The notes beneath the pieces are model-generated. The model made no database searches, was not told the origin of the DNA, and was given only the letters and a program-made list of their open reading frames with translations. 64,000 bases of DNA, taken from positions 160,001 to 224,000 of the forward strand of contig MTMD02000008.1 in assembly GCA_002010065.2 (NCBI GenBank). The letters run 5' to 3'. Source of the stretch: Candidatus Pyrohabitans jungbluthii (lineage in GTDB: Archaea; Hydrothermarchaeota; Hydrothermarchaeia; Hydrothermarchaeales; BMS3B). The position numbers were made by a program, and so were the translations under genes. Shown piece by piece: positions 4,613-21,956 of the stretch; within the stretch, counting starts at the first letter, position 1; every line of letters begins with the position of its first letter.

Positions 4613-4686
4613 CAAACCAAGATAGAAACTTTTTATGAGCTTTGTTAACTTGTATAATCAAACTTCACCACCAATAATCTCCACCC

Positions 4687-5088
4687 ATGTTAAAGCTCCT
4701 GCTCAGGGGCATGTACTATGTGGGCAAGAGTGCTGTGCTGGGAAGCTTTGAGAAGCTGGAGAACTACGAAAAACACCTTCTGGAGGAGGCTTTCAAGCGG
4801 GCGGAGTTCGTCTTCGTTGGCATTGTGGCAGACGATGAGGACAAGCGCCTGAAGGCAAAGATAAGGAAGCTTTCGAAACTTTTGGCAGCGCGCTACCCCG
4901 GGCGCTACGAGGTGGTGGAGGTTCGAGGAGAGTTCGCACCAGCGGTGGAGGATGAAGAGGTCCACACCCTGGTTGTGCCATCGCAGGAGCTTGCTCGAAG
5001 CATCAATGAGGCGAGGGAGAAACGCGGACTAAAGCGCCTTATGGTGGTGGAGGTGCCGCCGCCGGAGGTAGGGGAAACGGGAAATTAA
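4687..5088 (+). CDS. Degenerate archaeal phosphopantetheine adenylyltransferase (CoaD)-like protein
   Basis: LGSFEKL..HLLEEAFK..VFVGIVAD..INEAREKRGLKRL parallels archaeal PPAT, but HxGH is replaced by ENYE. Confidence 0.65.
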   Translation: MLKLLLRGMYYVGKSAVLGSFEKLENYEKHLLEEAFKRAEFVFVGIVADDEDKRLKAKIRKLSKLLAARYPGRYEVVEVRGEFAPAVEDEEVHTLVVPSQELARSINEAREKRGLKRLMVVEVPPPEVGETGN

Positions 5089-5100
5089 AGTAAAGGTGAA

Positions 5101-5358
5101 ATGTCTGTAGGTCCAATTTCACAGTACTGGGATTCTATAAAACTGGGAGGAAGATCTGTCCATAAGGTGGCTATTGCTTTACTCATTATTGGAGCAATTT
5201 CTTTTCTGGGGTGGTATATTCAAAAAACGTCGCATGCTCCGTTAATTCCCGCTCAAATTAGGGGCTATCCCCCATGGTTCTATGCGGTTGTCATAAGCTG
5301 GCTTATTGTGATAACATATCTTATCTTTTTGGCTTTAACAAAAAAAATGCAAGGGTAA
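5101..5358 (+). CDS. Small 2-TM membrane protein
   Basis: GGTGA SD upstream; two hydrophobic segments. Confidence 0.6.
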   Translation: MSVGPISQYWDSIKLGGRSVHKVAIALLIIGAISFLGWYIQKTSHAPLIPAQIRGYPPWFYAVVISWLIVITYLIFLALTKKMQG

Positions 5359-5391
5359 TATTACAGGGTGCATACAATCTTAAAGCTTTTC

Positions 5392-7095
5392 TCAGAAGAT
5401 ACTCTTCAAAAACTTTGCGAAGAGGGCAAGCATCCTCTTTATCTTCAGCCCCTGTGACCAGTCCAGCTCCCGGCGGTCTATCATCAGCCTTTCCCTCAGC
5501 TCGTAGAGGGAAGCCTTCACATGCTCCTCCCCCAGGGTGCCCTGCCTTCTATGCGTATCTACAAAGCGGATCATCTCCTTGGATATTGCTATTCTCTGCT
5601 CTATTTCCCTTAAGGTATCCTGGGGTATTAGTCCAGCGTTCGCCTTTATCTCGGCAAGCCTCAAAGCTGCATCGTAGGACAGGTTGACTATGTCATCTTT
5701 GCTCAGGTGACTTGTGCGGTAACTGAGAAAGTCCTTCCAGGTAAGTCCGCGGTCAAGCAGCGAGTAGTGGTCCATGAGCGTATGCGCATATTTAACAAAG
5801 CCATACGCCTCTGGATTCTCGTAGGCGATTGAACCCGGGTCGAGGAAGGGTGCGTAGGGCGAGATGAAGGGTAGAAGTCTCCCGCCGCGGTGCTCCTTCA
5901 CTAAACTTTCAGCCAGCTTTAAAGTGGTGTCTATGCTCTCCTTAGTCTGCCCTCCTAGACCAATCATAAAGTACAGGTCAAATTGCCTGCAACCTGCGTC
6001 GAAGGCTTGGGTGAGCATCTTCATTAGCGCGGCGTTAGAGTAATTCCTGCCTATGATTTCCCTAACCTTCTCGTCCCCAGACTCTGGGGACATCTCTATG
6101 GTGAAGTCGTCCACGCTCCTGCCCAGCTCTTTCATAAATCCTCGCGATGGCGGTGCAAAGAACTCGAATATCAGGGGAATGTCCACCTTCTCCTTTTTAA
6201 GAAGCTCAAGCACGCGCATGCCGTATTGCTCGCCGCCAATAGCTAAATCGCCAAGAATAAACGCCGGCGCCTTGAACTCCTGTATTTTGAGAATGTCCTT
6301 CACCACCATCTCGGGCTTGCGGAAGGCAACGCTATGGCGGTTGCAGACTCTCGCATACGCGTAAGCCGAGCCCCCACAGGCTATGCAGGCGCTCTCACAG
6401 CCTTTGCGGGTGAGCACCGCCATTATCGGCCTTTCCAGGAACTCGTAGAAGGGCAGGATATCCAAACTTCGCGTCCTCAGCATGCTTTTGAAAACATAGT
6501 CATAGTCGAGGGAGAACTCGTCTAAATTAGCGGGCACATAGCGGATGGGGTTTACCCTAACCCGGGAACCCTCACGGTAGCTCAAGTTTGGGACATCGCT
6601 GAGCTTCCCTTTACCCGAGATGGCATCCATGAGTTGCACAAATGGCTTTTCCGTTGAGTCTCCGCGGAGAACAAAATCCACCTCAGGCACATTAGTTAGA
6701 AGCTCTTCATGAAAGTAGCTCGAGGAGAGGCCACCCATTATCACGGGCACATCCTCGTGAATCTGTTTGCACAGCCTTGCCAGGTTTATCGCACCATGAA
6801 CATGTGGCATCCAGTGGAGGTCAATGCCAAAAGCCTTAGCTCGCATCTTTTTAATATACGCCTCTGGATCAAAGTTTGTGTCGCGGAGCATCCGCAGCGC
6901 CAGGTTAACTATTCTTACGCGGTACCCGTGCCTCTCCAGCGTCGAGGCTATAGACACGAAGCCTATAGGATACATCTCAAATACGGGTGTAGAAGGCACC
7001 AGGTCGTTTATCGGTCCCCAGAGGATGGGCCTCTCACGAAAGTCGAAGATGCTCGGCGGGTGAAGCAGAATAAGGTCAGCCTTCATGCTTAGCAC
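5392..7095 (-). CDS. B12-binding radical SAM protein (TIGR04190/Ta0216-like)
   Basis: HPPSIFDFR..STPVFEMYPIG, GIDLHWMPH B12-binding domain, CESACIAC CxxxCxxC motif. Confidence 0.85.
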   Translation of the reverse strand: MLSMKADLILLHPPSIFDFRERPILWGPINDLVPSTPVFEMYPIGFVSIASTLERHGYRVRIVNLALRMLRDTNFDPEAYIKKMRAKAFGIDLHWMPHVHGAINLARLCKQIHEDVPVIMGGLSSSYFHEELLTNVPEVDFVLRGDSTEKPFVQLMDAISGKGKLSDVPNLSYREGSRVRVNPIRYVPANLDEFSLDYDYVFKSMLRTRSLDILPFYEFLERPIMAVLTRKGCESACIACGGSAYAYARVCNRHSVAFRKPEMVVKDILKIQEFKAPAFILGDLAIGGEQYGMRVLELLKKEKVDIPLIFEFFAPPSRGFMKELGRSVDDFTIEMSPESGDEKVREIIGRNYSNAALMKMLTQAFDAGCRQFDLYFMIGLGGQTKESIDTTLKLAESLVKEHRGGRLLPFISPYAPFLDPGSIAYENPEAYGFVKYAHTLMDHYSLLDRGLTWKDFLSYRTSHLSKDDIVNLSYDAALRLAEIKANAGLIPQDTLREIEQRIAISKEMIRFVDTHRRQGTLGEEHVKASLYELRERLMIDRRELDWSQGLKIKRMLALFAKFLKSIF

Positions 7096-7185
7096 CGCGA
7101 AGTTTTGGTTATGGCAACAAAGCTATCGTTGAGAAATTGGAAAGTGTTAGGGAGTATGCTAGGTTTTGTCAAAAATAGATAGATA

Positions 7186-7257
7186 TGGGCCTGCCGGGAA
7201 TTGAACCCGGGCCGCGGGGTCCGAAGCCCCGCAGTCTATCCACTAGCCTACAGGCCC
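7186..7257 (-). tRNA. tRNA-Arg(UCG)
   Basis: Acceptor GGGCCTG/CAGGCCC, anticodon arm CGGGG-CTTCGGA-CCCCG, T-arm CCGGG-TTCAATT-CCCGG; no intron, CCA not encoded. Confidence 0.92.
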
Positions 7258-7260
7258 CAT

Positions 7261-7536
7261 TTAGCAAAGGTCTTCGCGCAGCTCATCTGGAAGCATGTGG
7301 GGGATGTCGTCAATTATTGGATACCACCTGCCACATTCGAGGCACAGGAGCACCTCACCCTTTATGGGCTTGAGCTCGCCCGAACACTTCTTGCACCGCT
7401 CAATCTTGCACGCCTTTGCGTAAAAGCGCAGGTTGCAGCTCTCGCAGAGCAGGAAGTCTTCCTCCTTGCGGTACTCTACATCCCCCTTGCACATGGGGCA
7501 CGCGAGGATCTCAAGGAGTTCGCTGTTTATCGGCAT
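7261..7536 (-). CDS. trm112: Trm112-family methyltransferase activator with inserted Cys-rich segment
   Basis: LLEILACPMCKG..LLCLECGRWYPIIDDIPHMLPDELR signature. Confidence 0.85.
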   Translation of the reverse strand: MPINSELLEILACPMCKGDVEYRKEEDFLLCESCNLRFYAKACKIERCKKCSGELKPIKGEVLLCLECGRWYPIIDDIPHMLPDELREDLC

Positions 7537-8119
7537 TTAAAATCCTCCTTATCTCGTCTGCTTTTTTAATGTCTTCCAGGCTGTTAACATTTACAGCCAA
7601 TCTGATATTTTCTGTTATATAAATCTCCTCCTTGCCTTCGAGATTCCTACCATTCACCACGTTTACCCCTGTGGGCACTAAATTGCCCATCACCAGCGTG
7701 GGAGTTAGCCCATAGCGGCGAAACACGCTTATAGGTACCAGCACCGCGAGCGCAGGCGAATCTCTGCGCCGGTACTCGCTTGCCACCTCCTCAATTTCCT
7801 GCGCTCTCAGCAGCGGAAGGTCAGAAGCCACGAGGAGGGTTGCTCCAAGACCAAGCACTTCAACAGCGAAGCGCAGGTCGGCAACGTAGCCATGTCCGGG
7901 TGTGGTTACAACCTCGACGCCAGTGTTCTTCAAAAACTCTGCTGTTCGCGGAGTATACGCAGTTGTGGCAGCGAAAATACGCTCTATGCTCCTCGCTCCG
8001 CTGAGTGCGGCAAGTACATGTGCTACCAGAGGCTTGCCATTAAACTCCAGCAGGGGCTTCTCCACCTTCAGCTTTAACCTCGTGCCCCTGCCACCAGCCA
8101 TTATCAGAGCATCCATCAC
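7511..8119 (-). CDS. cobY: Adenosylcobinamide-phosphate guanylyltransferase
   Basis: ALIMAGGRGTRL..EKPLL..GYVADL..NVNSLED NTP-transferase motifs; adjacent to cobS. Confidence 0.88.
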   Translation of the reverse strand: MMDALIMAGGRGTRLKLKVEKPLLEFNGKPLVAHVLAALSGARSIERIFAATTAYTPRTAEFLKNTGVEVVTTPGHGYVADLRFAVEVLGLGATLLVASDLPLLRAQEIEEVASEYRRRDSPALAVLVPISVFRRYGLTPTLVMGNLVPTGVNVVNGRNLEGKEEIYITENIRLAVNVNSLEDIKKADEIRRILNADKQRTP

Positions 8120-8844
8120 ACCAGCACCAGCATTGCAACAAGCCGCGAAATCTCGTTCACAGCCCCGAACACATCTCCTGAAATTCCGCCGAAGAGCCTG
8201 TGAGAAGCTTCAACGATGAAAAGCGTGACAGCTGCGACGAGAAGGAGCACAAGCAAAGCGCTCTCCCAGGCGATGGCAAGGAAGGGGAGGTAGACCAGGA
8301 GGCTGAGGAGCATTATCTTGTGGTTACCTCGAAGCACGGTCACGAAGGCGGAGCCCATACCTGAGTGGCTGCTCTGCCTGGCTGCGTAGCCTGCGAGCAC
8401 CATCGCAAACTTGGCTGAAGCCTCTCCCACCACCAGGATGGTAAACATGCCCTTGGCTTCGTATAGCGCCAGGTATGTCAAGAGAAGCACAAAGAAGCCT
8501 GCGCCGAAGGCAGCGACGCCATGGCTAATGTCGTGCATCGCCTTAAGGCGAGCTTCTCTGCTTCCGCGCACCATTGCGGCGTCTGCAATGTCAAGAAGAC
8601 CATCTAGGTGATGAAACCCCGTTAGAAGAAAAAGCACGAGGAGTGCCACACCTGCGGCGATGCTGCGGGGGAGAAAATAGAGCGATGCAAAGGCAACAGC
8701 ACTCGCAACGAGGGCAATCATCACACCCGCCACAGGGAAGAGCCACGCTGCCCGTGCTACTTCCTCATAGCTTTTAAAGCCCATCCTTACCGGAAGAATG
8801 GTCAGAAAACCCAGACACTTTCTGAGTTCCCTTAGAGGGTTCAT
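8116..8844 (-). CDS. cobS: Adenosylcobinamide-GDP ribazoletransferase
   Basis: FLTILP, TGFHHLDGLLDIAD and GGISGDVFGA motifs; multi-TM. Confidence 0.93.
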   Translation of the reverse strand: MNPLRELRKCLGFLTILPVRMGFKSYEEVARAAWLFPVAGVMIALVASAVAFASLYFLPRSIAAGVALLVLFLLTGFHHLDGLLDIADAAMVRGSREARLKAMHDISHGVAAFGAGFFVLLLTYLALYEAKGMFTILVVGEASAKFAMVLAGYAARQSSHSGMGSAFVTVLRGNHKIMLLSLLVYLPFLAIAWESALLVLLLVAAVTLFIVEASHRLFGGISGDVFGAVNEISRLVAMLVLV

Positions 8845-9957: not shown

Positions 9958-10398
9958 CTACTCCACGACCGGCGGCTGATTGGTAACTATCCAGTAGAGC
10001 TGGATATTTTTTATTGTTTCCATAAAGTCTTTAAAATTTATGGGCTTTACGATGTAGCTATTTGCCCCCAAGTCATAACAGGTTTCTATATCTATGTCGT
10101 TTTTTGATGTGGTAAGCATAACCACAGGAATTCTTCTGAGAACCTCTCTTGACTTTATGTACCTCAGCACCTCGATGCCGTCCACCTTTGGAAGCTTCAG
10201 GTCAAGAAGAATAAGCCCGGGGTGGGGGGCATCTCCCCTCTCCACACGCTTTAAGAACTCCAGCGCCTCCGCGCCGTCTCTTGCGACATGTATCTTATTC
10301 CCGAGGTTGTTCTTTTTGAAAGCCCGCAATGTGAGTTCAACATCATCTTGACTGTCTTCAACAAGCAGTATCTCTATCGCGCTGACCCTGTCCATCAT
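9958..10398 (-). CDS. Single-domain response regulator (Rcp1-like)
   Basis: ILLVEDSQDD, LLDLKLPKVDG, GANSYIVKP; start placed at the ATG overlapping the upstream kinase stop. Confidence 0.9.
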   Translation of the reverse strand: MMDRVSAIEILLVEDSQDDVELTLRAFKKNNLGNKIHVARDGAEALEFLKRVERGDAPHPGLILLDLKLPKVDGIEVLRYIKSREVLRRIPVVMLTTSKNDIDIETCYDLGANSYIVKPINFKDFMETIKNIQLYWIVTNQPPVVE

Positions 10399-11831
10399 CG
10401 CTTCACCTCCTTGGGAAGGGTGAAATAGAAGGTAGATCCCTCCCCCGGTGTTGACTCCGCCCATATCTTTCCACCGTAGGTCTCGACGATCTTCTTAACC
10501 ATGGCGAGCCCCACGCCTGTTCCTTCGTACTCGTCCTCGCGGTGCAGTCTCTGAAATATATCAAATATTTTGTCGTGGTAGCGCATGTCAAATCCTATGC
10601 CATTGTCCTTCACATAGAATAGGTAGCGGTCGCCTTCATCGCGGTAACCGATCTCTATTTCCGGCACCTCCTTGTCGTTGTACTTTAGAGCGTTTGATAT
10701 AAGGTTGGTGAAAATCTGATAAATTCGCTGCTTCTCGGCGTTCTTTATCACAGGAAGCTTTTCGGCTATTTTTATTTTTGCATTCTTCTTGTTTATCTCG
10801 TAGCTGTTGTCCTCCAAGGCAAGAGCTACCACCTCTGCTACGTTCACATCTCCCCGTACCAAGTTTATCCTCCCTATCCTGGAGTACTCAAGGAGCTCAT
10901 CTATGAGCACACCCATCTTACGCGCGCTTGAGATTATCCTATCAAGGTAGTGCTTTGCATCACCATCCAGAGTGTCGCCGTAATCCTCGAGGAGCGCAGT
11001 GGAGAAGCCCTCGATGCTGCGCAGGGGAGCCTTGAGGTCGTGGCTGATGGAGTAAACAAAGCTTTCTATCGCCTCATTTTTGCGCTTGAAACTCTCGCTT
11101 AGGGACTTCCGGAGGTTGTTGAAGGCGGTTGCAAGCATGCCTATTTCATCGCGCGATTTCACGGATATATCCTCTACTTCCTCCCCCTTCTGAATCTCCT
11201 TTGCGCTTCCTTCCACCTCCTTAATCAGCTCCTTTAAGGGTGTGCTGACGATTTTTCTGCTGAGGTAATAAACCACAACTAGGATGGAGATGGTAAGAAG
11301 CTGAAGGGTAACAAGTATGTAAAAGAAGTTTCTTTTCATGGCCATTGCTATGTCCCCATAGGGCGCAACAACGCTAACACTCCCCCTCAGCTCACCTATT
11401 TGATAATCGGGATGACAGGATATGCACCTCTCGTTTGTGTATAGCGCTCTTAGATACCTGAAGTAGCGGGTTCCGTCCTCAGCGGTTACCACCGTGTAGT
11501 ACTCAGATGTGTTCTTCTGCTTGAACATCTCCATGACACGCTTTTCCAACTCATCCGGGGCGTTTGCAGGATTTACAGGCTCGAGAGAGGTCTGCTTGAG
11601 TTTATATCCAGTAACCTCGGTGAACTCCGAAGCAACGCGAGAAATCAGCTTATGGTCTTCAATCTGAATGAGAAGCTCGGAGATGGTGCGTGAGCGCTCA
11701 AGAATCTGCTCATCGAGGCTGCGCTTCTGATAGTTGAAAATTATTATGCTTCCAGCGGAGGAAATTCCAATAATCACTACTGTAAGTGCAAGAGCCAGCT
11801 TTGTTCCTATGCTGAGGTCTCTCAGATTCAA
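10395..11831 (-). CDS. Membrane sensor histidine kinase with heme-c (DUF3365/Tll0287-like) domain and HAMP
   Basis: TM, then PVNPANAPDELE..CISCH, TM, HAMP, SHDLKAPL H-box, HATPase; probable TTG start after GGAGG. Confidence 0.88.
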   Translation of the reverse strand: MNLRDLSIGTKLALALTVVIIGISSAGSIIIFNYQKRSLDEQILERSRTISELLIQIEDHKLISRVASEFTEVTGYKLKQTSLEPVNPANAPDELEKRVMEMFKQKNTSEYYTVVTAEDGTRYFRYLRALYTNERCISCHPDYQIGELRGSVSVVAPYGDIAMAMKRNFFYILVTLQLLTISILVVVYYLSRKIVSTPLKELIKEVEGSAKEIQKGEEVEDISVKSRDEIGMLATAFNNLRKSLSESFKRKNEAIESFVYSISHDLKAPLRSIEGFSTALLEDYGDTLDGDAKHYLDRIISSARKMGVLIDELLEYSRIGRINLVRGDVNVAEVVALALEDNSYEINKKNAKIKIAEKLPVIKNAEKQRIYQIFTNLISNALKYNDKEVPEIEIGYRDEGDRYLFYVKDNGIGFDMRYHDKIFDIFQRLHREDEYEGTGVGLAMVKKIVETYGGKIWAESTPGEGSTFYFTLPKEVKR

Positions 11832-11979
11832 AGAGATGCCTCCGTTTATATAATTTTTTATACCGAAATACTGATTTATTGAAACAAATTTCACTTGTGC
11901 GGTCTCCACGCAGGAAGAGAAAATGGAATGCAGGATTTATTAAATAGCTGGGGAGAATACCACACCGGCAGGAAGTTGT

Positions 11980-12237
11980 CTAACCACCTGACACAGGAGG
12001 GAAGAAGGCAATCTCATCCTCGTCCTTAATTCCTTGCTCCGGCTGCGCCACTTCGTGATTCACAGAGACAAAATAATTTCTTCCCTCGAAGGCTTCGGTG
12101 AGCGCAGGAAAGCGCTGCTTCAGCGCCTCTATAACGTCGCTAACCTTTGCCCCTTCTTTAACCTCAAGCTCAACCTCTGCAACGCCAGCCTTCTCGCGGA
12201 ACCAGGCGAAGAGCTTCACCTTTACCATCGCTTTCAT
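11980..12237 (-). CDS. moaD: MoaD/ThiS/SAMP ubiquitin-like sulfur carrier
   Basis: VKVKLFA.FRE.AG..DEDEIAFFPPVSGG with C-terminal diglycine. Confidence 0.88.
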   Translation of the reverse strand: MKAMVKVKLFAWFREKAGVAEVELEVKEGAKVSDVIEALKQRFPALTEAFEGRNYFVSVNHEVAQPEQGIKDEDEIAFFPPVSGG

Positions 12238-12254
12238 AGCCCAGGTTAACGTTG

Positions 12255-15044
12255 TCAATCCCAGTACATCCTCGTTCGAGCGTATTCGCGCTCAGCCTTT
12301 AAAATCTCCCGGTAGAGTTCCTCCTCGTTTAACGCCCTGCTGAGCACGCGCTTGGCTGTTTCAGGTCCAACTCCACGCCCTGCCTGTGCAATTATTGCGC
12401 TCTTCCCGTAGGAAAGGAAGAGGTTCGCCGACAGCTGGAGCTTTTTTATCTCCTGCTTTTCCTCTTTGCTGAGCTTCTTCCCCTGCTTATAACTCCTGTA
12501 AAGACTACGCAGCCTTCTCGCATCTCCCTTGAGCACCGCTAACATGCGCGCCTGGCAGTGCTCACAGCGCAGGTCTTTTGGCAGCGAATTTATCTTGAAG
12601 CTCGCATGCCACGAGGCGCAGTAAAGGCAGAAGAGCTCAACCCTGCGCTCCCCTATGCGCCGCTTAAGCGCCTTAAGAATGAGCCTCTCGGCTCGCTCAG
12701 GCAGAACCACCTCGCCATAGCTGCGCAGCCCCATCTCGGCTATTGGCGAGGGCTCATCGCGACGCAGCACCTCCACCTCCAGCTTACCCTCGCGTACCCT
12801 GCGAATCACATCACACGCGCGCGGTATGTCCAGGTTGTCCTTGAATATCTCTTTCAGCGTCTCCCGGTGTATGAGCGAGCCCTCATACGCGCGTATCACT
12901 CTGCGAATGCCCGCACTGGTGTAGGTGTAGTCTTTCGCTATCGCCCCGAAGCGCTTGGCAACGTGCACAAACTTCCACTTGAAAAGAGAGGTTCTCTTCA
13001 AGCTCGTAGCGAGCAAGGGCTCAATGTGGTCTGGCTCAACCTGAAATAGCGAATAAATATCCTCCTCGCCTAAACGAGTGCCGGACTGAAGTATAATCCT
13101 GTACGCATCGCTTTGGAGCGCAACGCTCTGTCCAAGCTTTGAGGTTAAAAGCAGGGAGAACACCCTGCCAAGGGTTTCGTTCACCTTCATGCCAAAGGGC
13201 GCGTGAATAATCGCCAGCCCTCCCAGAAGCTCCACATAAATCTTGCTCTTCCCGGGTACAGGTATGCCTTTGCGCAGGTGACGCTTGACCTTACTTACAG
13301 CCTGCTTTCTCGTGTAATCATCACAGGGGTAAGAAGCGAGAGCTTCCTCTGCCTTGCTTTTCGCCTTATCGCGGAGTTCTGCCACCTCTTGTGCTACTTC
13401 ATAGGGCACAGGTATCTCCTCACCCACCCAGCTTGGCACGGCACCAGTGACCTCGCTTATGGGCTCAACAAGTATCTGCTCGCCATCTATAGCGACCACA
13501 CGCCAAGGTGAACCTTTGAAGATTATCCTGCTCCCCGGCTCTGCATAGTTAACCACGAAAGCTTCGTCGAGCACGCCCACGTTTTCCCTAGTAACGAGAT
13601 TCTTGACGAAGTAACGCTTCTCATCGGGTATGGTCGAGAGGTTGTTGTAGTAGTACTGCCGCGAGTTTCGCGTTGCCCCGAAGCGCTCTTCTTCCACCCA
13701 GAGAAGGCGAAGTTCGGCGAGCAGCGAAAGCGCCTCCTCCAGCTCCTCCTCTGTGAGCTCCGCAAAGGCAAAGCTCCTGCGCAGCAGAGCAAGCGCCTCT
13801 CGCTTCTCCACCCGCTTCCGCTCCAGAGCCAAACCAACCAGCTGGTGGGCAAGCACATCATAGGGCTTAAGATGGGGCTCTATCTCCTCCAGAAGCTCCT
13901 CCTTAGCTCGCCTCGCTATGGCGAGCGCTTCAAGGGTATCATCGGCGTCGGTGGTTATAATAACACCCTTAGAAGCCAAGCCCAAGCGGTGTCCACTCCT
14001 TCCCACGCGCTGGATGATGCGCGAAACCTGGCGCGGAGACTTGTACTGGATTACCAGGTCCACACTCCCAATATCGATGCCCAGCTCCAGAGAAGAGGTG
14101 CAGATGAGCGCTTTGAGCGCGCCCTTCTTAAACTCCTCCTCCGTGGTGATTCGCACCTCCTGAGAAAGCGATGAGTGGTGTATACCGACGCTCTCGCCTA
14201 TAATCTTAAATCTCGAAGCGAGAATCTCCGCCATTTCGCGGGTGTTCACAAAGATCAGCGCATGCCTGTGCTGTGCTATAAGCTCGCGCATCCTGCGCAG
14301 CCTTGTGGCGGCGGCTATGCCAGTGAAGAGGCGCTCCGCTATTTTGCGGTCCTCGCTTTTTGGCTTCGGATACTCCACGCGAATGTCCATCTCCTTAGCG
14401 GTGCTCACCCTCACTATCTCCACAGGCGCATGGTTGCAGAGGAAGCGCGCCATTCTCTCGGGGGAACCCACAGTGGCACTTATACCTATGCGCTGAAAAT
14501 CGTATTGCGCAAGCTCGCGCAGACGCTCAAGGGCAACGCTGAGCTGCGCACCCCGCTTGTTCTCCGCGAGCTCATGCACCTCGTCCACCACAACGTAGCG
14601 CACATTTCTCAGATGCCTCCGCATCACCGGCGCGGGTAGAATCGCCTGAAGCGTCTCTGGCGTAGTTATGAGCATCTCCGGCGGAGCCAGCGCCTGCTTC
14701 CGACGCTGATACTGGGAGGTATCGCCGTGGCGAACTGCGATGCGTATCCCCAGCTTCTCTCCCCACCACTCTAAGCGGGAGAGCAGGTCTCGATTAAGGG
14801 CACGCAGGGGTGTGATGTACAGCAACGAGATGCCTTTGCTTTTCGCCTCTTCCTCAGCCAATTTACTGAAAAGAGGGAGCATAGCTGCTTCTGTCTTGCC
14901 GATGCCTGTGGGAGCTATGAGAAGCACATGTCTGCGGCTGAGAATAACTGGAATAGCCGCCTCCTGAATAGGGGTGGGCTTCTTAAAACCCGACTCGCTT
15001 AGCACATTGCGCACTCGCTGAGATAAAAGGGAGAAGGACTTCAT
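12255..15044 (-). CDS. lhr: Archaeal Lhr-family DEAD/DEAH helicase
   Basis: APTGIGKT, DEVH, SAT, TSSLELGIDIG, QRVGRSGH; C-terminal CxxC..CxxC. Confidence 0.92.
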   Translation of the reverse strand: MKSFSLLSQRVRNVLSESGFKKPTPIQEAAIPVILSRRHVLLIAPTGIGKTEAAMLPLFSKLAEEEAKSKGISLLYITPLRALNRDLLSRLEWWGEKLGIRIAVRHGDTSQYQRRKQALAPPEMLITTPETLQAILPAPVMRRHLRNVRYVVVDEVHELAENKRGAQLSVALERLRELAQYDFQRIGISATVGSPERMARFLCNHAPVEIVRVSTAKEMDIRVEYPKPKSEDRKIAERLFTGIAAATRLRRMRELIAQHRHALIFVNTREMAEILASRFKIIGESVGIHHSSLSQEVRITTEEEFKKGALKALICTSSLELGIDIGSVDLVIQYKSPRQVSRIIQRVGRSGHRLGLASKGVIITTDADDTLEALAIARRAKEELLEEIEPHLKPYDVLAHQLVGLALERKRVEKREALALLRRSFAFAELTEEELEEALSLLAELRLLWVEEERFGATRNSRQYYYNNLSTIPDEKRYFVKNLVTRENVGVLDEAFVVNYAEPGSRIIFKGSPWRVVAIDGEQILVEPISEVTGAVPSWVGEEIPVPYEVAQEVAELRDKAKSKAEEALASYPCDDYTRKQAVSKVKRHLRKGIPVPGKSKIYVELLGGLAIIHAPFGMKVNETLGRVFSLLLTSKLGQSVALQSDAYRIILQSGTRLGEEDIYSLFQVEPDHIEPLLATSLKRTSLFKWKFVHVAKRFGAIAKDYTYTSAGIRRVIRAYEGSLIHRETLKEIFKDNLDIPRACDVIRRVREGKLEVEVLRRDEPSPIAEMGLRSYGEVVLPERAERLILKALKRRIGERRVELFCLYCASWHASFKINSLPKDLRCEHCQARMLAVLKGDARRLRSLYRSYKQGKKLSKEEKQEIKKLQLSANLFLSYGKSAIIAQAGRGVGPETAKRVLSRALNEEELYREILKAEREYARTRMYWD

Positions 15045-15918: not shown

Positions 15919-16332
15919 ATGATACCCAAAGACGTGCTCAGGGCTTTTGATAATCTTTGCTACCCTGATAAACCCCTTGTGTGGGTGGCGACCTGCAGCG
16001 AAGACGAGCCCCACCTCGTACCCGTGTGCTTCGTAAAGGCGCTCAACGACGGCAGGCTGCTCATAGGCAACGTTTTTATAAAGCGGACAGAGCGCAACAT
16101 TGAGAGCAATCCTCGTGTTGCCGTGGGCGTAGCCTTCAAGCGCGAAGGCTGGGACGGCTACCTGCTCAAGGGCAGAGCAGAGGTTCTGAGAGAGGGTGAG
16201 TCCTTTGAAAGCTTCAAGCGTGAGGTGCTGGACAGGAGCGGCGGCAAACGAGAGTTAAGCTCTGCGCTTCTCGTAGACGTGGAGGAGGTTTATTCACTGG
16301 CGCCGAAAAAGGGGAAGAAAAGGGTGGTTTAG
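15919..16332 (+). CDS. Pyridoxamine 5'-phosphate oxidase-like FMN-binding protein
   Basis: VATCSEDEPHLVP..TERNIESNPRVAV..LLKGRAE split-barrel pattern. Confidence 0.82.
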   Translation: MIPKDVLRAFDNLCYPDKPLVWVATCSEDEPHLVPVCFVKALNDGRLLIGNVFIKRTERNIESNPRVAVGVAFKREGWDGYLLKGRAEVLREGESFESFKREVLDRSGGKRELSSALLVDVEEVYSLAPKKGKKRVV

Positions 16333-17240
16333 AGCCTCAGCTTCTCGCTGTAGTGGTGCCCCTCCGGGTGCACCTCCTCAATAATCTCGCAATAGAATAT
16401 GTCCTTCTCGGTAAGGGGCTTCGAGAGGTAGCCCAAGTCGAGCATCACAGGCACAAAACGCATTGTAGCTTTGATGTACTCCCGGGGTAAAGCCGCGCAG
16501 TACCGCGGAGATAGTTTCATCGCCGCGAGTGCGAAATCGCTGTCCACGAAGCCAAGTACTGAGGCCGCTACCTCAGCCGCTTTTCTCGGGCGGTTGATTA
16601 TGAGGTTGCTCGCCTCTTCGTGCACCTCAAGGAACACGCGCAGCGCCTTCGAGTCGAGAAAGTCTTCGCGCGCAATTATCCCGTAGCTGGGATTGAAGGG
16701 CCAGAGCCTCGCCGGCGGGAGGGCAATTCTAGCGCCCAGCTCGCGCTCAAGCAGTGCCGCGAGAGCAGGCGTGCCGATGGCTGCAGCTATTTCCTCAGCC
16801 TCCATCGCGAGGGGTATGAAGTCCGCCCACGGGTAGTTTATAACCTCGGTCTCTATGCTGTGCTCCCTGAGAAGGTGGCGCAGGATAATGTCATGGATTG
16901 AGCCTCTCGGGGGGGAGCCTATGCGCTTGCCCTCAAGCGAAGTAACGATATCCTCAACACTCTGCCCATCAACGCCTTTAGCTGTGCACAGGGCTGTGCC
17001 CTCCACGTGTCCCCCGGCAACGCATTTTATCTCTGCCCCCTGCGCTATGCCTATCATCACAGGGGGTAGGCCAATATAGCCAATGTCCACCTCGCCCCGC
17101 TCCAGCGCATCTACGATGGCAGGGCCGCCTCCGAAGAGTTTCCAGCTTGCGCTTACTCCTCGACTCTCAAGCATGCGCAGCCCGCGAATGATTAAGGCGG
17201 TATGGTAGACCGTAGAGAGGTGTCCAACTCTAATCCTCAT
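16329..17240 (-). CDS. NMT1/THI5/SsuA-fold binding-protein-like protein lacking a signal peptide
   Basis: FGGGPAIVDAL.RGEVDIGYIGLPP, LEGKRIG.P.RGSIHD; no N-terminal hydrophobic segment; overlaps the comDE stop. Confidence 0.8.
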   Translation of the reverse strand: MRIRVGHLSTVYHTALIIRGLRMLESRGVSASWKLFGGGPAIVDALERGEVDIGYIGLPPVMIGIAQGAEIKCVAGGHVEGTALCTAKGVDGQSVEDIVTSLEGKRIGSPPRGSIHDIILRHLLREHSIETEVINYPWADFIPLAMEAEEIAAAIGTPALAALLERELGARIALPPARLWPFNPSYGIIAREDFLDSKALRVFLEVHEEASNLIINRPRKAAEVAASVLGFVDSDFALAAMKLSPRYCAALPREYIKATMRFVPVMLDLGYLSKPLTEKDIFYCEIIEEVHPEGHHYSEKLRL

Positions 17241-18354
17241 CTCTCAGAAACCCCATCACATTTGCTTTGATATCCTCGGGCGATAGGGGGATGTTACTCA
17301 CGCGAGCGTTGCCAGGTTTTGTTACCACGTGCACAAAGCGCGGCGCATCGCCTCGGTGCATGGCTTCGACTACCTCTTCAGGCGTAGAGGCGCGGGAGGC
17401 ATTTTCTATGCCCATCGCCCTTGCAAGCATCGCCAGGTCGGCGCTTCGCATCGTCGCGGTTGGCTGGTTGCCTGTGCTGCCGTAGGCAGCGTTGTCCATT
17501 GCTAAGATGGTTAAATTCCGCGGCGCCATCTCAGACACCGTTGCTAGGCATCCTGCGTTCATGAGCAGGCTCCCGTCGCCATCTATAACCACAACCTCCT
17601 TTCGCGTACCCAGAGCTATGCCAAGCCCAATGGATGTCGCCATGCCCATACTACCAAGCATGTAGAAGTTTGAGCGCTGGTGGAGCACGTGGTACAGCTC
17701 CTTGCTGGGCACGCCCAAGTTGCTCACCACCACCTTACCGCGGAGCTCCTCTCTTATACCGGCGAGAATCTCAAAGCGCGTGTGCTTCGCGGTAGCTTCT
17801 TTGCCCTCAAAGCTTCTCCTAGCTACAGTTCTGTCTTCACCCTCCCAGCGAGGCATCTCAAAGTCGCTGCCCTCCCATACCTTAGGGCTGAGCAGCGCCG
17901 CAGCAATGCGACTCTCCTCGAAGGCGATGGAGGCAGCCTCAGCTATTTTTGGTATGTCCTCCCTCTCCTGAACCTCAACAAAATCTATCTCCAGCGCTTT
18001 AAGCAGCCTGGGTACAAACATACCCATTGGCTTCTGGGCCACTATAGCCTCTTTGTAAACCCCCCGCCAGCTTATCAAGATAAAAAGGGGAAGCTCATAC
18101 AGCTTGGTGAGCGATGCTAGGGCATTGATCATGTTCCCTATGCCGGAGGTTTGCACCAGCATCACGGGCTTCTCCCCGGCGAGCGCAGCGCCTGCGGCTA
18201 TGCCTACACCTTCTTCCTCACGGGTAAGAGGTACATGCCTGAATTCTCTGGCAATGAGATAATGCAGCGCTTTAACCTTATCACAGGGCAGCGTCAAAGC
18301 GAGGCTTGCACCAGTGTCTTTTAAAAGCGCGACCACATCTTCCTCTGGACTCAT
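17230..18354 (-). CDS. comDE: Fused sulfopyruvate decarboxylase (alpha+beta)
   Basis: LPCD, REEEGVGIAAGA, QTSGIGN; NFYMLGSMG and DGDGSLLMN..DNAAYGSTGNQ ThDP motif; follows cysteate synthase. Confidence 0.9.
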   Translation of the reverse strand: MSPEEDVVALLKDTGASLALTLPCDKVKALHYLIAREFRHVPLTREEEGVGIAAGAALAGEKPVMLVQTSGIGNMINALASLTKLYELPLFILISWRGVYKEAIVAQKPMGMFVPRLLKALEIDFVEVQEREDIPKIAEAASIAFEESRIAAALLSPKVWEGSDFEMPRWEGEDRTVARRSFEGKEATAKHTRFEILAGIREELRGKVVVSNLGVPSKELYHVLHQRSNFYMLGSMGMATSIGLGIALGTRKEVVVIDGDGSLLMNAGCLATVSEMAPRNLTILAMDNAAYGSTGNQPTATMRSADLAMLARAMGIENASRASTPEEVVEAMHRGDAPRFVHVVTKPGNARVSNIPLSPEDIKANVMGFLRDED

Positions 18355-19607
18355 AGCTCAAGCTCCTTAAGTTCGCGATCGCTCGCATTTTTGCTGAGAG
18401 TATAGTCTTCCTTTAATCTGTGAAGCTTTTTATCCTTTCGCAGCCTTGCGCTTCCGCCGCCGGTAATGTTGAGTAGCACCCTCTCGTGCCTACGAATGCT
18501 TCCATTTTCAACTGCCTGCAAAAGTGCTGCCACTGCCACGCTGGCAGCAGGGAGAATATCTATCCCCTCCAGCCTTGCAAAAAGTGCCTTGGCGCGCTTT
18601 GCCTCGCTGTTCTTAACCCCGTACATCTCTCCCCGCGTGGCCACAAGCGCGTCGTAAACCCCACCTGCTATGCCATAGGGAGGGTAGCGGTTTGAGAGCA
18701 CCCGCGCGTAGATCAGGTCGAGCACATTCTCAGCCTGCGGAATGTCCTCCTCAGGCACAATCTCCCGCCTGCCGGCACGCCATGCGCTGTACATAGGTGC
18801 AACAGGGAGATTCTGGGCCAGGTGAAGCCTGGGCAAAGCTTTACCAAAGCGGCCATCCTCGCGAAGGCGGAGCGCCGCCTCGTAAGTTGCTATCGCACCC
18901 GTACCGCTTCCCACCGCTTGGAAGTAGTGCTGTGGCATGCACCCCATTTCAAACACTGCATCGAGCAGAACTGTAGCCAAGCCATCTCTGCGAGCTATAT
19001 TCCTAGCACCACCCTCATAGGTAAAGCCCTTTATTCTGGAAAGTCGCTGGGCTATTGCGATGCTGTCCGAGTAGTCGCCGTCGGTAATCATGACCGTCTT
19101 CACATACCTCCTGTCATAGCGTGGAAGAAAAACTCCGCACAGGCATTTCCTAGGCACGAGGAGTACCACCGGGAAGCGCTCCTGCGAGGCTGCAGCTGCG
19201 AAGGCTTTTGCGGTATTGCCTGCAGAGGCTACGACCAGCTTGGTGACACCGTTCTCCTGTGCATAGCGTATAGTTACCGCAGCTTCAAGCTCCTTGAATG
19301 TGCAGGTCTCCATGCTTACCCCTCGCTCTGGCCAGTAGCCGTTGAAGGTGATGTAGAGGTTTTTAAGCCCAAGTTCTTCCGCTAGACCCTCGCTTTTATA
19401 GGTTACCGGTTTCTCGCTGTAGCTTGAAGGCTCGTTTACAGGCAGCCAGTCGATGAAGCGCCATATCCCGGGGAGGTCCCTGAGAGTCAACTTTTTCTCT
19501 GGATAGATGCTTCTTGTTAATCCTTTGTGGTTAGGGCAGACGAAATTAAATGAAACATTCTTCCTAACCTCTCCCCCTTCGAGGCAAAGCAGATGAAACT
19601 TCTCCAT
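18351..19607 (-). CDS. Cysteate synthase (threonine-synthase-like PLP enzyme)
   Basis: FNGYWPERG, TCTFKELEA (PLP Lys), ASAGNTA, EGGARNIARRDG, VLSNRYPPY, NITGGG. Confidence 0.9.
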   Translation of the reverse strand: MEKFHLLCLEGGEVRKNVSFNFVCPNHKGLTRSIYPEKKLTLRDLPGIWRFIDWLPVNEPSSYSEKPVTYKSEGLAEELGLKNLYITFNGYWPERGVSMETCTFKELEAAVTIRYAQENGVTKLVVASAGNTAKAFAAAASQERFPVVLLVPRKCLCGVFLPRYDRRYVKTVMITDGDYSDSIAIAQRLSRIKGFTYEGGARNIARRDGLATVLLDAVFEMGCMPQHYFQAVGSGTGAIATYEAALRLREDGRFGKALPRLHLAQNLPVAPMYSAWRAGRREIVPEEDIPQAENVLDLIYARVLSNRYPPYGIAGGVYDALVATRGEMYGVKNSEAKRAKALFARLEGIDILPAASVAVAALLQAVENGSIRRHERVLLNITGGGSARLRKDKKLHRLKEDYTLSKNASDRELKELEL

Positions 19608-19820
19608 GAAGATACCTCAGGGGTTAGGAAAAAATCCTACCATGGATAGTATAATTTGAAAATCATCCAAAAAATTATAGCACTTTAAAAGATGATTTTC
19701 ACCTGTCAACTTCATGGAGATGGTGGGGAAGAAGAGACGGGACTATAAGGGTAATGCCAGAGAAATTTGAGGCATATATTTAAATAGAACAAAGAGATAC
19801 TATTATATAGGAACGCTTTC

Positions 19821-21956
19821 TTGGATGTGGTGGGGATTAATGTCCTTGGAAAATTAAAACTTGGAACTAAGTTCCTTCTTGTTGTCGGAACTGTTGTAGC
19901 TGTGGTTATCTCATCTTTTTTTGTCTGGGAATACAAAGAACTGGAAAAACACATAATAAGTGGGGTAGAGAAGCAGGCTGAGATAGCCTTCGAGCAGATC
20001 GTTATAACCCGCCAGTGGAGTGCAGATTACGGAGGGGTATACGTTGAGAAAAGGGCAGGTGTGGAGTCCAACCCCTACCTCCGTGAAATCGGGATTAACC
20101 CAGATATAATTGATATTGAAGGAAAAAAATACACCTTAAAGAATCCTGCCCTCATGACAAGGGAAATCTCAAGTTATGCTGAGGCAAAGGGAATTCATCA
20201 ATTCCATATCACCAGCCTCAAGCTTATCAATCCCAACAATGCCCCGGATGAGTTTGAAAGGCAGGCGCTTGAAAAATTTGAAAATGGAATAAAAAGCGTT
20301 TCTCAGATAACAATTAAAAAAGGCACTCCAGTCTTCCAGTACATGGCACCTATTTATGTAGAGGAGGCGTGCCTGAAATGCCACGGGCATCTGGGGTATA
20401 ACGTGGGGGACATTGCAGGGGGCATAAGCGTCTTTGTGCCCATGCAGGAGGCGTATCTGGCTATTCAAAATACAAAAAGAAATCTCTTCTTTCTTGCAGC
20501 AGCAATAATACTCGTTTTAGAAGCAAGCCTCTATTTGTCAATAAAAAAGATGGTAACGAAGCCCTTAGAAAAACTTACCAGAGGTGCTGAAGAAATTGGA
20601 AAAAGCAATCTGGACTACAGGCTTGAGATAGAGAGCAGCGACGAAATAGGCAGACTTGCTGGAGCTTTTAACGATATGAGTTCAAAATTGAAGAAGTCCC
20701 ATGAGGATATAAAGCATAAAGCCGAGCAAATTGCTCTGATGCGGGACATCGACAAAGCTATACTCTCCACAATGCGCATAGATAAGATGGTCCCTGCGAT
20801 TCTCGGGAAAATAAACAGTGTAATATCCTGCGACTATGCTCATGTAGCCATTCTTGATGAAAAAAATAGAGACTTCTATGTTATTGGCTCTTCTGCGGAA
20901 AATAAGGCCTCTATTAGTTGCTTCAAGATACCATTTGAGCAGGCTTCTCAGTGTCCTGTTTTGAGAGATAAAAAACCCATGATTTGCGGGGATATAACCC
21001 AAGAAAACCCCTGCAGCGCATGCATCTTCAATTTGAAAATTGTGGAGGAAGGGGCTCGTTCTACATTAATTGTACCACTTCTCGCAGGGGAGCGGGTATT
21101 AGGTCTCCTTCATCTTGGAAGCCTCACCAACGACGCATTCAATGAGGAGCACATGGCAATAGCGCAGGAACTCGCAAACCAGCTTGCAGTCGCTCTTGAG
21201 AATGCAAGACTGATAGAAGAACTTAACAATGCTTATAAGAAGCTTGAAGAAAACTATCTCGATTTAAAAGAGATAGACAGGGTAAAAAACGACATCATCG
21301 CAAACGTTTCTCACGAGCTTAGAACGCCATTAACCATTGTGAAGGGTTTTATTGAAATTGCGATGGAAGAAGAGGATAAAGAGGAGAGAAATGAACTCCT
21401 TTCAATGTGCAGGAAGGCACTATTCAAGCAAAATAGAATTATAGACGACCTGATAAATGTATCGGAGTTCGAGAAAAAGGAATACAAAATAAAATTCGAA
21501 AATGTTGATTTAGAGCATGTTATCCACATTGCCAAAGAAGAGATTAAATCTTACGCACTTGAAAAGGATATTACCATAAAAACGTCTGTAGAAGAGAGCC
21601 TGCCTGATATAAAGGCAGATTTCGAGGCCTTGAAGCATGCAATTACTAATTTACTTGACAACGCAATAAAATTCAACAGGAAGGGCGGAGAGGTTGTCAT
21701 AGAAGCACGGCGAAAAGACAATGCGATTGAAGTATGCATTGCAGATACAGGTATTGGTATTCCCAAAGACAAAATACCTAAGCTGTTCACACCTCTATAC
21801 CAGATCAATGCCACCACTACTCGAAAATTCGGCGGCACTGGCATGGGCCTGGCGGTTGTCAAGAGAATTATTGAAGCCCACGGTGGAAAAGTATGGGTGG
21901 AAAGTGAGGAAGGTAAAGGAAGCAGATTTTGTTTTACCCTACCTATTCAAAGATAA
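19821..21956 (+). CDS. Sensor histidine kinase: TM-heme c (DUF3365)-TM-HAMP-GAF-HisKA-HATPase
   Basis: [32 protein letters not shown]; HAMP; GAF; SHELRTPL; GGTGMGL. Exact start uncertain. Confidence 0.9.

Follow-up and report, generated by a model that had tools for sequence, protein, structure and literature searches.

A binding-protein-fold gene in the cysteate synthase–comDE operon of Candidatus Pyrohabitans jungbluthii: a candidate ThiS-dependent enzyme for the last step of coenzyme M synthesis

In Methanosarcina acetivorans the genes for coenzyme M (CoM) synthesis from phosphoserine stand together as MA3297 (cysteate synthase), MA3298 (ComDE) and MA3299 (MMP16/ComF), and the available text of PMC12068725 describes MMP16, a putative sulfurtransferase, as the primary CoM synthase. 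Mutants lacking MMP16 still grow with sulfide, their phenotype depending on the sulfide in the medium, and the same text treats the backup route from sulfoacetaldehyde to CoM as unresolved (PMC12068725). Here we describe a related operon in a 64,000-nucleotide (nt) stretch of Candidatus Pyrohabitans jungbluthii (Hydrothermarchaeota; assembly GCA_002010065.2, contig MTMD02000008.1, positions 160,001 to 224,000 of the forward strand), which is called the window throughout. The first two genes are the same as in M. acetivorans, in the same order and tightly coupled, and a third gene occupies the position of the Methanosarcina final-step enzyme. Unlike MMP16, which is a COG1900 plus ferredoxin protein, the product of this third gene has an SsuA-type fold; the host, again unlike M. 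acetivorans, has no MMP16, COG1900 or Mcr match, and the sulfur donor that we propose is a ThiS thiocarboxylate. The SsuA-fold protein has no COG1900 homology by Pfam, so that any likeness to MMP16/ComF would be one of function and not of family membership. We propose that it is a ThiS-thiocarboxylate-dependent enzyme which converts sulfoacetaldehyde to CoM and stands in for MMP16, a reading drawn from sequence comparison and modelling on which, for us, belief and doubt are evenly balanced.

The operon, its presumed promoter region and the gene that meets its 3' end are laid out as follows.

19608-19820, 213 bp: intergenic region 5' of the operon, presumed from its position to be the promoter region
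18351-19607, minus strand: operon gene 1, cysteate synthase (ThrC-like pyridoxal phosphate (PLP) enzyme), 418 amino acids (aa); TIGR03844 and PF00291 (PALP)
17230-18354, minus strand: operon gene 2, fused sulfopyruvate decarboxylase ComDE (thiamine-diphosphate enzyme), 374 aa; TIGR03845 and TIGR03846
16329-17240, minus strand: operon gene 3, SsuA/NMT1-fold protein, candidate ThiS-dependent sulfoacetaldehyde thiolation enzyme, 303 aa; PF13379
15919-16332, plus strand: PNPOx-like flavin/F420-type protein, 137 aa; PF01243 at 52.5 bits

The stop of the cysteate synthase gene overlaps the start of comDE by 4 nt, and the comDE stop overlaps the start of the SsuA-fold gene by 11 nt. Gene 1 reaches 548.2 bits with TIGR03844 (cut-off 324.9) against 90.6 bits with the best threonine synthase model (cut-off 303), and by these scores it is a cysteate synthase, predicted to make cysteate from phosphoserine and sulfite. 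Gene 2 is by the same kind of evidence a fused ComDE, predicted to turn sulfopyruvate into sulfoacetaldehyde, because both halves of sulfopyruvate decarboxylase match over cut-off: the alpha half at residues 4-160 (TIGR03845, 191.4 bits against 147.95) and, only just, the beta half at residues 193-368 (TIGR03846, 224.4 bits against 221.5). A phosphonopyruvate decarboxylase identity was rejected, since that model scores 214.8 bits against a cut-off of 312.5 while the ComD and ComE models pass. The initial annotation, made from the sequence of the window, had described a cysteate synthase–comDE operon with a third, overlapping gene, and the model scores and the layout of the open reading frames (ORFs) bear it out. 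ThrC-type cysteate synthases run in the synthetic direction; sulfonate breakdown for sulfur assimilation (cysteate to sulfoacetaldehyde to sulfite) was set aside on this ground and because it would leave the complementarity with MMP16, described below, unexplained.

The third protein matches NMT1_2 (PF13379) at 66.5 bits and NMT1 (PF09084) at 39 bits and nothing else in Pfam, and it stays under the cut-offs of the transporter families TIGR01728 (93.4 against 163.5 bits) and TIGR01729 (27.2 against 304.25). Its AlphaFold2 model (mean pLDDT 91.7, pTM 0.89) has the two-lobe type II binding-protein fold: the top Foldseek matches are SsuA structures (3ksx at E 1.1e-17, TM 0.79/0.83), followed by the zinc-bound Staphylococcus aureus binding protein 3un6, TauA and the enzyme Thi5, and 3un6 is also the best solved relative by sequence (E 1e-10). 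Foldseek and Pfam thus agree with the SsuA/NMT1/THI5 fold first assigned to this gene, and the four histidine motifs pointed out at that time (GHLSTVYH, GGHVEG, GSIHD and HPEGHHY) are all present in the sequence. Neither an export signal nor a membrane anchor is seen in the start codon position, the hydropathy or the model: the ORF starts at the first ATG, GTG or TTG after the upstream stop, homologues, at 293-342 aa, begin at the same residue, the first modelled strand begins at residue 2, and hydropathy (19-residue Kyte-Doolittle windows) reaches a maximum of 1.27, with 0.49 in the N-terminal window. No ABC permease or ATPase was found by Pfam among the ORFs scanned from 3029 to 26868, the rest of the genome not having been searched for NitT/TauT permeases. 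The earlier observation that leader, anchor and transporter neighbours are all lacking therefore holds, and no missed upstream leader came to light. By its sequence, the third protein is cytoplasmic and without a transporter partner.

Set beside the importer proteins SsuA and TauA (TIGR01728; 3ksx, 2x26, 6ssy), the window protein has the same two-lobe fold (TM 0.75-0.83), finds in them its closest sequence relatives among solved structures, and probably retains their sulfonate pocket; unlike them, it is cytoplasmic and partnerless, scores under the family cut-off and has an invariant His/Cys/Trp signature of its own. The THI5 (4h6d, 4esx) and MqnA-type enzymes share the fold class and the PF09084 match, and are precedents for a binder turned enzyme. 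They differ in sequence (14-18% identity), in their conserved residues and in gene context, which is thiamine or menaquinone synthesis for them and sulfonate and ThiS genes here. THI5, a hydroxymethylpyrimidine phosphate synthase, has an active-site lysine that binds PLP, and its substrate histidine is bound as well. No lysine is found in the invariant or nearly invariant columns of our family alignments A1 and A2, and identity to Thi5 is 14-16%. A THI5-like or MqnA-like identity was rejected for the low identity, the missing invariant lysine and the different gene context, and both enzymes are fold analogies only.

A word-indexed search at E <= 0.001 counted 2135 homologous proteins, not all of the family, and the best 120 of these are 225-342 aa long. 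Among the matches listed, those at about 50% identity come from Methanoregula, Methanotrichaceae, Methanomicrobiales and Methanobacterium, and all named homologues listed carry ABC-transporter binding-protein names ('ABC transporter substrate-binding protein', 'NitT/TauT family'); the clusters in the Protein Atlas are likewise all named 'putative ABC transporter substrate-binding protein'. At 93% protein identity, a metagenome-assembled genome of Candidatus Pyrohabitans (Hydrothermarchaeota) holds the closest public locus. Across phyla (alignment A1, 20 sequences) the mean column identity is 61%, and Y12, H13, C73, H78, S114, H116, D117, W138, N183-G187, H207, E208, C248, H291, H296 and Y297 are invariant, whereas H7 and H295 vary and no lysine is invariant. 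Such conservation looks enzyme-like. A profile search against 1.84 billion representatives returned 74 matches at E <= 1e-30, and the full-length family members score at least 300 bits and start at residues 1-12. The next tier, at 190-257 bits, is extended at the N terminus by 37-79 residues that show signal, twin-arginine or lipobox features, and does not have H13, H116 (Q instead), WADF, GTP, NPSYG or HHY. Because these next relatives carry leaders and miss the signature residues, the family is, as far as sequence comparison goes, a cytoplasmic offshoot of exported binding proteins with fixed residues of its own. In the nearest exported relatives (P0138, P0140, P0153, P0157 and P0176; alignment A4), all with leaders of the kinds just named, the 'NPSYG' site of the cytoplasmic family reads 'NPCC' in several cases (e.g. 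P0138, P0140).

The host genome (1.99 Mb in 15 contigs, 99.95% complete, 1.84% contamination) has no match to McrA (PF02249) or to COG1900/PF01837, and with the MMP16 model (TIGR03287) it gives only ferredoxin-like domain matches of at most 30 bits. None of the 38 Hydrothermarchaeota genomes searched has McrA, and the available text of the published description of the phylum (PMC6775978) likewise reports no mcr genes. With none of the three matched in a genome of this completeness, the operon is therefore, by gene content, one for CoM-type or sulfonate synthesis in a non-methanogen, as had been anticipated in the initial annotation for the case of a host that lacks Mcr.

The SsuA-fold family keeps company with ComDE well beyond the window. 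Relatives turned up in 402 stretches when one genome per species was scanned; 80 loci were kept, with flanks of up to 8 kb, and tblastn within these flanks placed ComDE in 27 loci and cysteate synthase in 21. The ComDE-linked loci spread over at least 8 clades of a quick maximum-likelihood (ML) tree, in which row L020, a wrongly chosen ORF whose branch is very long, is to be ignored; these clades include 2 of Hydrothermarchaeota and 2 of Bathyarchaeia, with Atabeyarchaeia, Methanoregula, Hecatella, Nitrososphaerales and Thermodesulfovibrionales. Of the 38 Hydrothermarchaeota genomes, 14 have the family (E < 1e-100), and it is these 14 that also have ComE (at least 217 bits) and a cysteate synthase scoring over its cut-off. 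In 13 of them the three genes follow one another on a single contig, and in the fourteenth a contig end splits them. The 24 genomes without ComDE are also without the family, the only exception being a weak match (E 3.5e-46) in G031. Where the family gene is not adjacent to ComDE, ComE was found elsewhere in the genome in all five cases tested (3 Thermodesulfobacteriota-type bacteria and 2 Asgard archaea), and of 21 genomes from one order of Thermodesulfobacteriota, 20 have the family and 20 have ComE, with both present in 19. Taken by set, ComE is present in 14/14, 11/12, 5/5 and 19/20 of the family-bearing genomes. The family is thus not randomly placed with respect to CoM genes, and the co-occurrence with cysteate synthase, proposed earlier as a check, is found in these 14 genomes and 21 loci.

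In the bacterial order ComDE belongs to a ComA-ComB-ComD-ComE operon, and at five loci (L028, L037, L059, L063 and L084) ComDE adjoins the family gene with no cysteate synthase found in the flanks. The family therefore accompanies ComDE whichever upstream route is used, cysteate synthase or ComA, which points to sulfoacetaldehyde as the shared link between the two. At two bacterial loci of the Thermodesulfobacteriota type (L109 6612-12619, G168:C159; and L110, G186:C193) a single operon holds QueH, ComA, ComB, ComD, ComE, a radical SAM protein and two DUF169 proteins; these bacteria have the route to sulfoacetaldehyde of class I methanogens, with no ComC seen in the stretch.

The relation of the family to MMP16 is best seen in methanogens. 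We sampled 121 Methanomicrobiales genomes, calling MMP16 at E <= 1e-80 and ComE at E <= 1e-45, and found the family in 12, MMP16 in 79 and ComE in 83. MMP16 is present in 74 of the 83 genomes with ComE, and just 2 of these 74 carry the family as well, at a distance of more than 1 Mb from ComDE. The remaining 9 are without MMP16, and each of them has the family, which in 8 cases is encoded on the ComDE contig, about 4.6 kb from ComDE. Every ComE-positive genome in the sample thus has either MMP16 or the SsuA-fold family. MMP16 is likewise absent from all 6 Methanoregulaceae genomes reached from our loci, one of them a complete chromosome, and 5 of these have an L-ASST-like COG1900 protein of about 158 bits and one has no match. 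Outside the methanogens, 13 of the 14 Hydrothermarchaeota genomes that bear the three genes have no PF01837 match, and at E <= 1e-20, a threshold at which the MMP16 model does detect L-ASST-type proteins, no MMP16-like or L-ASST-like match was found in Atabeyarchaeum (complete chromosome), Hecatella, Nitrososphaerales and 2 Bathyarchaeia, nor in 2 Nitrospirota genomes including one of Thermodesulfovibrionales. The same five archaeal genomes have no McrA.

At the Methanoregulaceae loci a helix-turn-helix (HTH) regulator gene and the family gene are divergent from an operon for an ATPase, a GTPase, an Fe-S protein, cysteate synthase and ComDE. In Methanoregula (e.g. L025 5943-7591, L024 5244-5864) the first three are a permease-less ABC ATPase, a CobW/UreG-like GTPase and a small Fe-S protein, and they sit between cysteate synthase–ComDE and the divergent pair of HTH regulator and SsuA-fold gene. 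These three are the trio of unknown function whose presence beside CoM genes is noted in the legend to Fig. 2 of PMC12068725. One possible role for them is maturation of a metal centre in one of these enzymes.

A second, smaller protein links the family to sulfur transfer. A ThiS-family protein of about 92 aa (50.3 bits) with an invariant C-terminal Gly-Gly is encoded in the flanks of 23 of the 80 loci, and in 15 it is the immediate neighbour of the family gene. These adjacent pairs, which occur in either orientation, come from Bathyarchaeia, Methanotrichaceae, Methanobacteriaceae, Asgard lineages and Nitrososphaerales. Other neighbours are ThiF (12 of the 80 loci), a class I/II aminotransferase (11), CysK-like (10) and serine-acetyltransferase-like (10) proteins, a PNPOx-like protein (9, by ORF clustering), cysteine desulfurase (7), TauE (6), a small sulfite reductase, O-acetylhomoserine sulfhydrylase and an FMN reductase (FMN_red; 5 each) and a nitroreductase (4). 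The counts obtained by clustering are lower bounds, because the family ORF itself was lost by ORF picking in 3 of the 80 loci (L024, L026 and L070); many loci are short contigs. The PNPOx-like neighbour is found in 4 Hydrothermarchaeota, Hecatella and 4 Methanobacteriota, with one further case (L074) by tblastn, and the flavoproteins in this list (PNPOx-like, FMN_red and nitroreductase) could supply two electrons. In the window itself the PNPOx-like gene converges on the SsuA-fold gene, the two 3' ends overlapping by 4 nt, and its product, which has weak matches to F420-dependent PPOX-class models, is by position and family a possible reductase partner of the SsuA-fold protein. In Nitrososphaerales the ThiS-like neighbour at one locus (L063 5197-5502, plus strand) has eight residues past the Gly-Gly and would therefore need C-terminal processing before activation.

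A complex was predicted for the adjacent SsuA-fold/ThiS pair of locus L028, which is from a genome other than that of the window, with custom alignments A2 and A3. The three runs gave ipSAE values of 0.61, 0.59 and 0.61, where the best control gave 0.01; they share at least 94% of their contacts, with a partner pLDDT of at least 81. In the model ThiS residues 88-94 contact the invariant cleft at S114, H116, W138, D140, G156 and T157 (window numbering), and by this model the family member is predicted to bind the carrier with its Gly-Gly tail in the cleft. We know of no solved complex of an SsuA-fold protein with ThiS, though no search aimed at one was made. The geometry of a tail in an active site is known for ThiS-, MoaD- and CysO-type systems (ThiS-ThiG, MoaD-MoaE, CysO-CysM, HcyS-MetY), and the modelled pair is like them in this, in the beta-grasp carrier of about 92 aa that ends in Gly-Gly, and in the ThiF-type activators encoded close by. 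Unlike them, it pairs the carrier with a protein whose fold, that of a binding protein, bears no relation to ThiG, MoaE or CysM; its proposed acceptor, an aldehyde, also needs reduction; and the SsuA-fold family has no invariant lysine for a Schiff base. ThiG-type enzymes use a lysine Schiff base, and without an invariant lysine in the family a ThiG-like route is therefore unlikely.

The host's best match to this carrier family is encoded on contig C7, where it adjoins ThiF, a CxxCxxCC protein, a ThrC-like enzyme and dsrAB. At this locus (L106; G000:C7:33501-41500) dsrA and dsrB score 478.5 and 485.6 bits, both over cut-off, and are followed directly by the ThrC-like PLP enzyme, which has an N-terminal zinc-ribbon-like stretch, and then by ThiS, the CxxCxxCC protein and ThiF, an order that ties dissimilatory sulfite reductase to a sulfur-carrier system. 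The window also holds a 92-aa ThiS/MoaD-family protein that ends in Ser-Gly-Gly (11980-12258, minus strand; PF02597, 71.3 bits), encoded 4 kb downstream of the operon by a gene whose first 4 nt are shared with the end of the Lhr helicase gene; its product is more likely of the MoaD type, because its match to the ThiS-neighbour family is weak (36.3 bits).

From the gene identities, fold, cytoplasmic location, co-occurrence, neighbourhoods and passing complex model described above, we infer the substrate, sulfur donor, reductant, product and use of the third protein as follows. Cysteate synthase would make cysteate, a general aminotransferase encoded elsewhere would convert it to sulfopyruvate, and ComDE would decarboxylate this to sulfoacetaldehyde. 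The third protein, a descendant of sulfonate-binding transporter proteins that may now be an enzyme or the substrate-holding core of one, would hold sulfoacetaldehyde in its interdomain cleft by the sulfonate group, using the ancestral sulfonate pocket. The Gly-Gly thiocarboxylate tail of a ThiS-like carrier, charged in the host by the ThiF encoded on contig C7, would enter the same cleft and attack the aldehyde carbon; with transfer of the sulfur and departure of ThiS-carboxylate a thioaldehyde would be left, to be reduced to the thiol 2-mercaptoethanesulfonate, which is CoM. Candidate reductants are the invariant cysteine pair C73/C248, a bound metal, and the PNPOx-like or another neighbouring flavoprotein. 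The task of MMP16/ComF would thus be done by an unrelated protein, and in a host free of Mcr the likely users of the product would be corrinoid methyltransferases of the MtaA type, acting with MtrH. The initial annotation had suggested an enzyme, a carrier or a sensor for the final step; the complementarity with MMP16, the ThiS neighbours and the complex model favour an enzyme or an obligate component of that step.

Genes that could use such a product are at hand in the host. One is of the MtrH family (367.5 bits, cut-off 287) and seven are of the URO-D family, of which two are over the cut-off of the methylcobalamin:CoM methyltransferase subfamily (364.9 and 299.3 bits against 244) and under the MtaA equivalog cut-off of 400; on contig C14 the methyltransferase genes stand in one cluster with those for a RACo activase, a corrinoid protein and an HdrD-like protein. 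An early suggestion to look for CoM methyltransferases and hdr in this genome thus found MtaA-like, MtrH-family and HdrD-like genes. In another Hydrothermarchaeota genome (G029; L111 3701-11684, G029:C123) seven co-directional genes, for an MtaA-like protein, a corrinoid protein, RACo, MtrH, cysteate synthase, ComDE and the SsuA-fold protein, form one array with gaps of 0-6 nt or 4-nt overlaps, which suggests use of the cofactor by methyltransferases; the methyltransferase set of this array is the same as that on contig C14 of the host. An HdrD-like (CCG) gene lies about 2 kb upstream of this array on the opposite strand, with two genes between, and in G030 an MtaA-like gene lies 3.6 kb upstream of cysteate synthase on the same contig. 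MtaA-family genes over cut-off are present in 11 of the 14 Hydrothermarchaeota genomes with the three-gene set and in 6 of the 24 others. MtrH and methyltransferase genes have been noted in Hydrothermarchaeota (PMC6775978), and Mcr-free 'methylotrophic acetogen' schemes in which methyl groups pass via CoM have been proposed for Asgard lineages (bioRxiv 10.1101/2021.02.19.431964); the available text of neither source states the origin of the CoM.

A wider proposal, to which we give somewhat less belief than doubt, is that a binding-protein-fold enzyme fed by ThiS thiocarboxylate is a second, unrelated CoM synthase, which would have replaced MMP16 in Methanoregula and would supply Mcr-free archaea (Hydrothermarchaeota, Bathyarchaeia, Asgard lineages, Hecatella and Nitrososphaerales) and sulfate-reducer-type bacteria with CoM for use by MtaA and MtrH. 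Literature searches, with supplementary files outside their scope, returned no link of NMT1/SsuA or of a sulfur carrier to CoM synthesis, and in the papers covered the terms 'thiocarboxylate', 'coenzyme M' and 'sulfoacetaldehyde' never appear together. Two comparative genomic studies of ThiS/MoaD-like proteins (PMC2948915, PMC1779556) do not mention COG0715, sulfonate, TauA or NMT1.

The competing explanation that survives best, an unlikely one in our estimate, is that the SsuA-fold protein is a non-catalytic cytoplasmic binder of sulfonate or sulfite, which would hold sulfoacetaldehyde or deliver sulfite to cysteate synthase or ComA while the thiol forms non-enzymatically or through another sulfurtransferase. 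Fold and best sequence model are indeed those of sulfonate-binding proteins, both upstream routes use sulfite and would fit co-occurrence with either, sulfite reductase and TauE are among the neighbours, the host has dsrAB, and the last step is called possibly non-enzymatic in the available text of PMC12713407. A carrier of sulfite would, however, leave unexplained both the complementarity with MMP16 and the loci where ComDE adjoins the family gene without cysteate synthase in the flanks; the invariant Cys and His residues and the high column identity would be unusual for a plain binder, and the ThiS link and the tail-in-cleft model point to sulfur at the sulfide level.

It is quite unlikely that the protein is an enzyme acting on sulfoacetaldehyde or another intermediate of the pathway to give a product other than CoM, such as a different thiol or sulfonate metabolite. 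That the host and several other carriers of the family have no McrA match would fit this, as would the bacterial carriers, which have no known need for CoM, and the lineages concerned, in which CoM is not known to have been detected. The URO-D/MtrH methyltransferase sets could take another thiol, and the MtaA-like proteins of the host reach only 332.8 and 286.2 bits with the MtaA equivalog model. Yet the gene stands in the CoM cluster of Methanoregulaceae, methanogens that need CoM, exactly where MMP16 is missing; two of the host MtaA-like proteins pass the cut-off of the CoM methyltransferase subfamily, and in G029 such a gene is joined into the same array.

A general ThiS-linked role in sulfur metabolism, for example loading or unloading of the carrier for cysteine or homocysteine synthesis with only an indirect link to CoM, we regard as improbable. 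ThiF, cysteine desulfurase, CysK-like, serine-acetyltransferase-like and O-acetylhomoserine sulfhydrylase neighbours would suit it, and so would the coexistence of the family with MMP16 in one Methanobacterium and one Methanotrichaceae checked. A role of this kind needs no ComDE, and yet ComE goes with the family in nearly all family-bearing genomes of the four sets, and the Hydrothermarchaeota without ComDE, the weak match in G031 apart, are without the family. Finally, the reading that the SsuA fold and the public names of homologues suggest, an ordinary substrate-binding protein of an ABC transporter or else a sensor of sulfonates, is close to excluded: the protein has no leader, anchor, scanned permease or ATPase neighbour, or DNA-binding or signalling domain by Pfam, it scores under the SsuA cut-off, and its exported relatives form a separate, lower-scoring tier without the signature residues.

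Several points weigh against our proposal of a ThiS-dependent enzyme that stands in for MMP16. No ThiS gene is beside the window operon, the best host match to the ThiS-neighbour family being the one on contig C7 (59.7 bits), and the SsuA-fold protein has no recognisable motif for a redox cofactor. The mark for ipSAE, which 58 of 80 solved complexes and 2 of 110 mismatched pairs attain, is a rough one with custom alignments, and the count of clades comes from a quick ML search only. The Methanomicrobiales genomes were requested at 90% completeness or more and reported with no completeness values; the 9 complementary genomes are probably one clade and therefore amount to roughly one evolutionary event; and one genome of this order (G054) has the family without ComE at E <= 1e-45. 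The family shares a genome with MMP16 in 2 Methanomicrobiales and in the single Methanotrichaceae and single Methanobacterium genomes that were checked; it is thus not a strict replacement and could have another role where both coexist. One of the 14 Hydrothermarchaeota genomes with the three genes has a COG1900 protein, as have 20 of the 21 genomes of the Thermodesulfobacteriota order, in which the COG1900 protein could perform the final step; in that order, moreover, one genome is without ComE and one without the family. Lastly, Methanoregula boonei was reportedly isolated in medium containing CoM, and if Methanoregula cannot make CoM the argument from complementarity is weaker. In the text open to them, our literature searches returned nothing relevant on a CoM requirement of this species.

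Around the operon, the products of the ORFs scanned from 3029 to 26868 include, besides the ThiS/MoaD-family protein mentioned above, an Lhr-type helicase, a Na/Ca exchanger, signalling proteins (histidine kinases and response regulators), CobS, a nucleotidyltransferase and a B12-radical-SAM protein. Of the histidine kinases, two that combine a Tll0287-like sensor domain with HAMP lie on either side of the region (10395-11909, minus strand, and 19821-21956, plus strand), and the window has at least seven histidine kinase genes. The second of the two is divergent from the operon and has the 213-bp intergenic region in common with it; it has a CLKCH (CxxCH-type) motif and lies in a stretch of low GC (41.8% against 50-57% around it). 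Genes for a B12-binding radical SAM protein, a MobA-like nucleotidyltransferase and CobS stand together at 5392-8844 (minus strand) and adjoin a tRNA gene (7186-7257); they are cobamide-related, in a genome rich in corrinoid methyltransferase genes. A 527-aa ORF at 3029-4612 (plus strand) has no Pfam match at E <= 1e-5 and lies within a stretch of 40-43% GC (2001-6000).

The last step is the least settled part of CoM synthesis, and the SsuA-fold family offers a concrete, clonable candidate for it. If the proposal is true, it would explain how Methanoregulaceae without MMP16 make an essential cofactor, how organisms free of COG1900 could make CoM, and why genes for CoM-type biosynthesis are found beside corrinoid methyltransferase genes in archaea and bacteria that have no Mcr. 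It would also bring a new pairing to enzymology, that of a transporter binding-protein fold with a ubiquitin-like sulfur carrier, and would correct the name 'ABC transporter substrate-binding protein' now borne by the listed homologues. On the wider proposal, CoM-dependent methyl metabolism would reach far beyond the metabolism of methane and alkenes.

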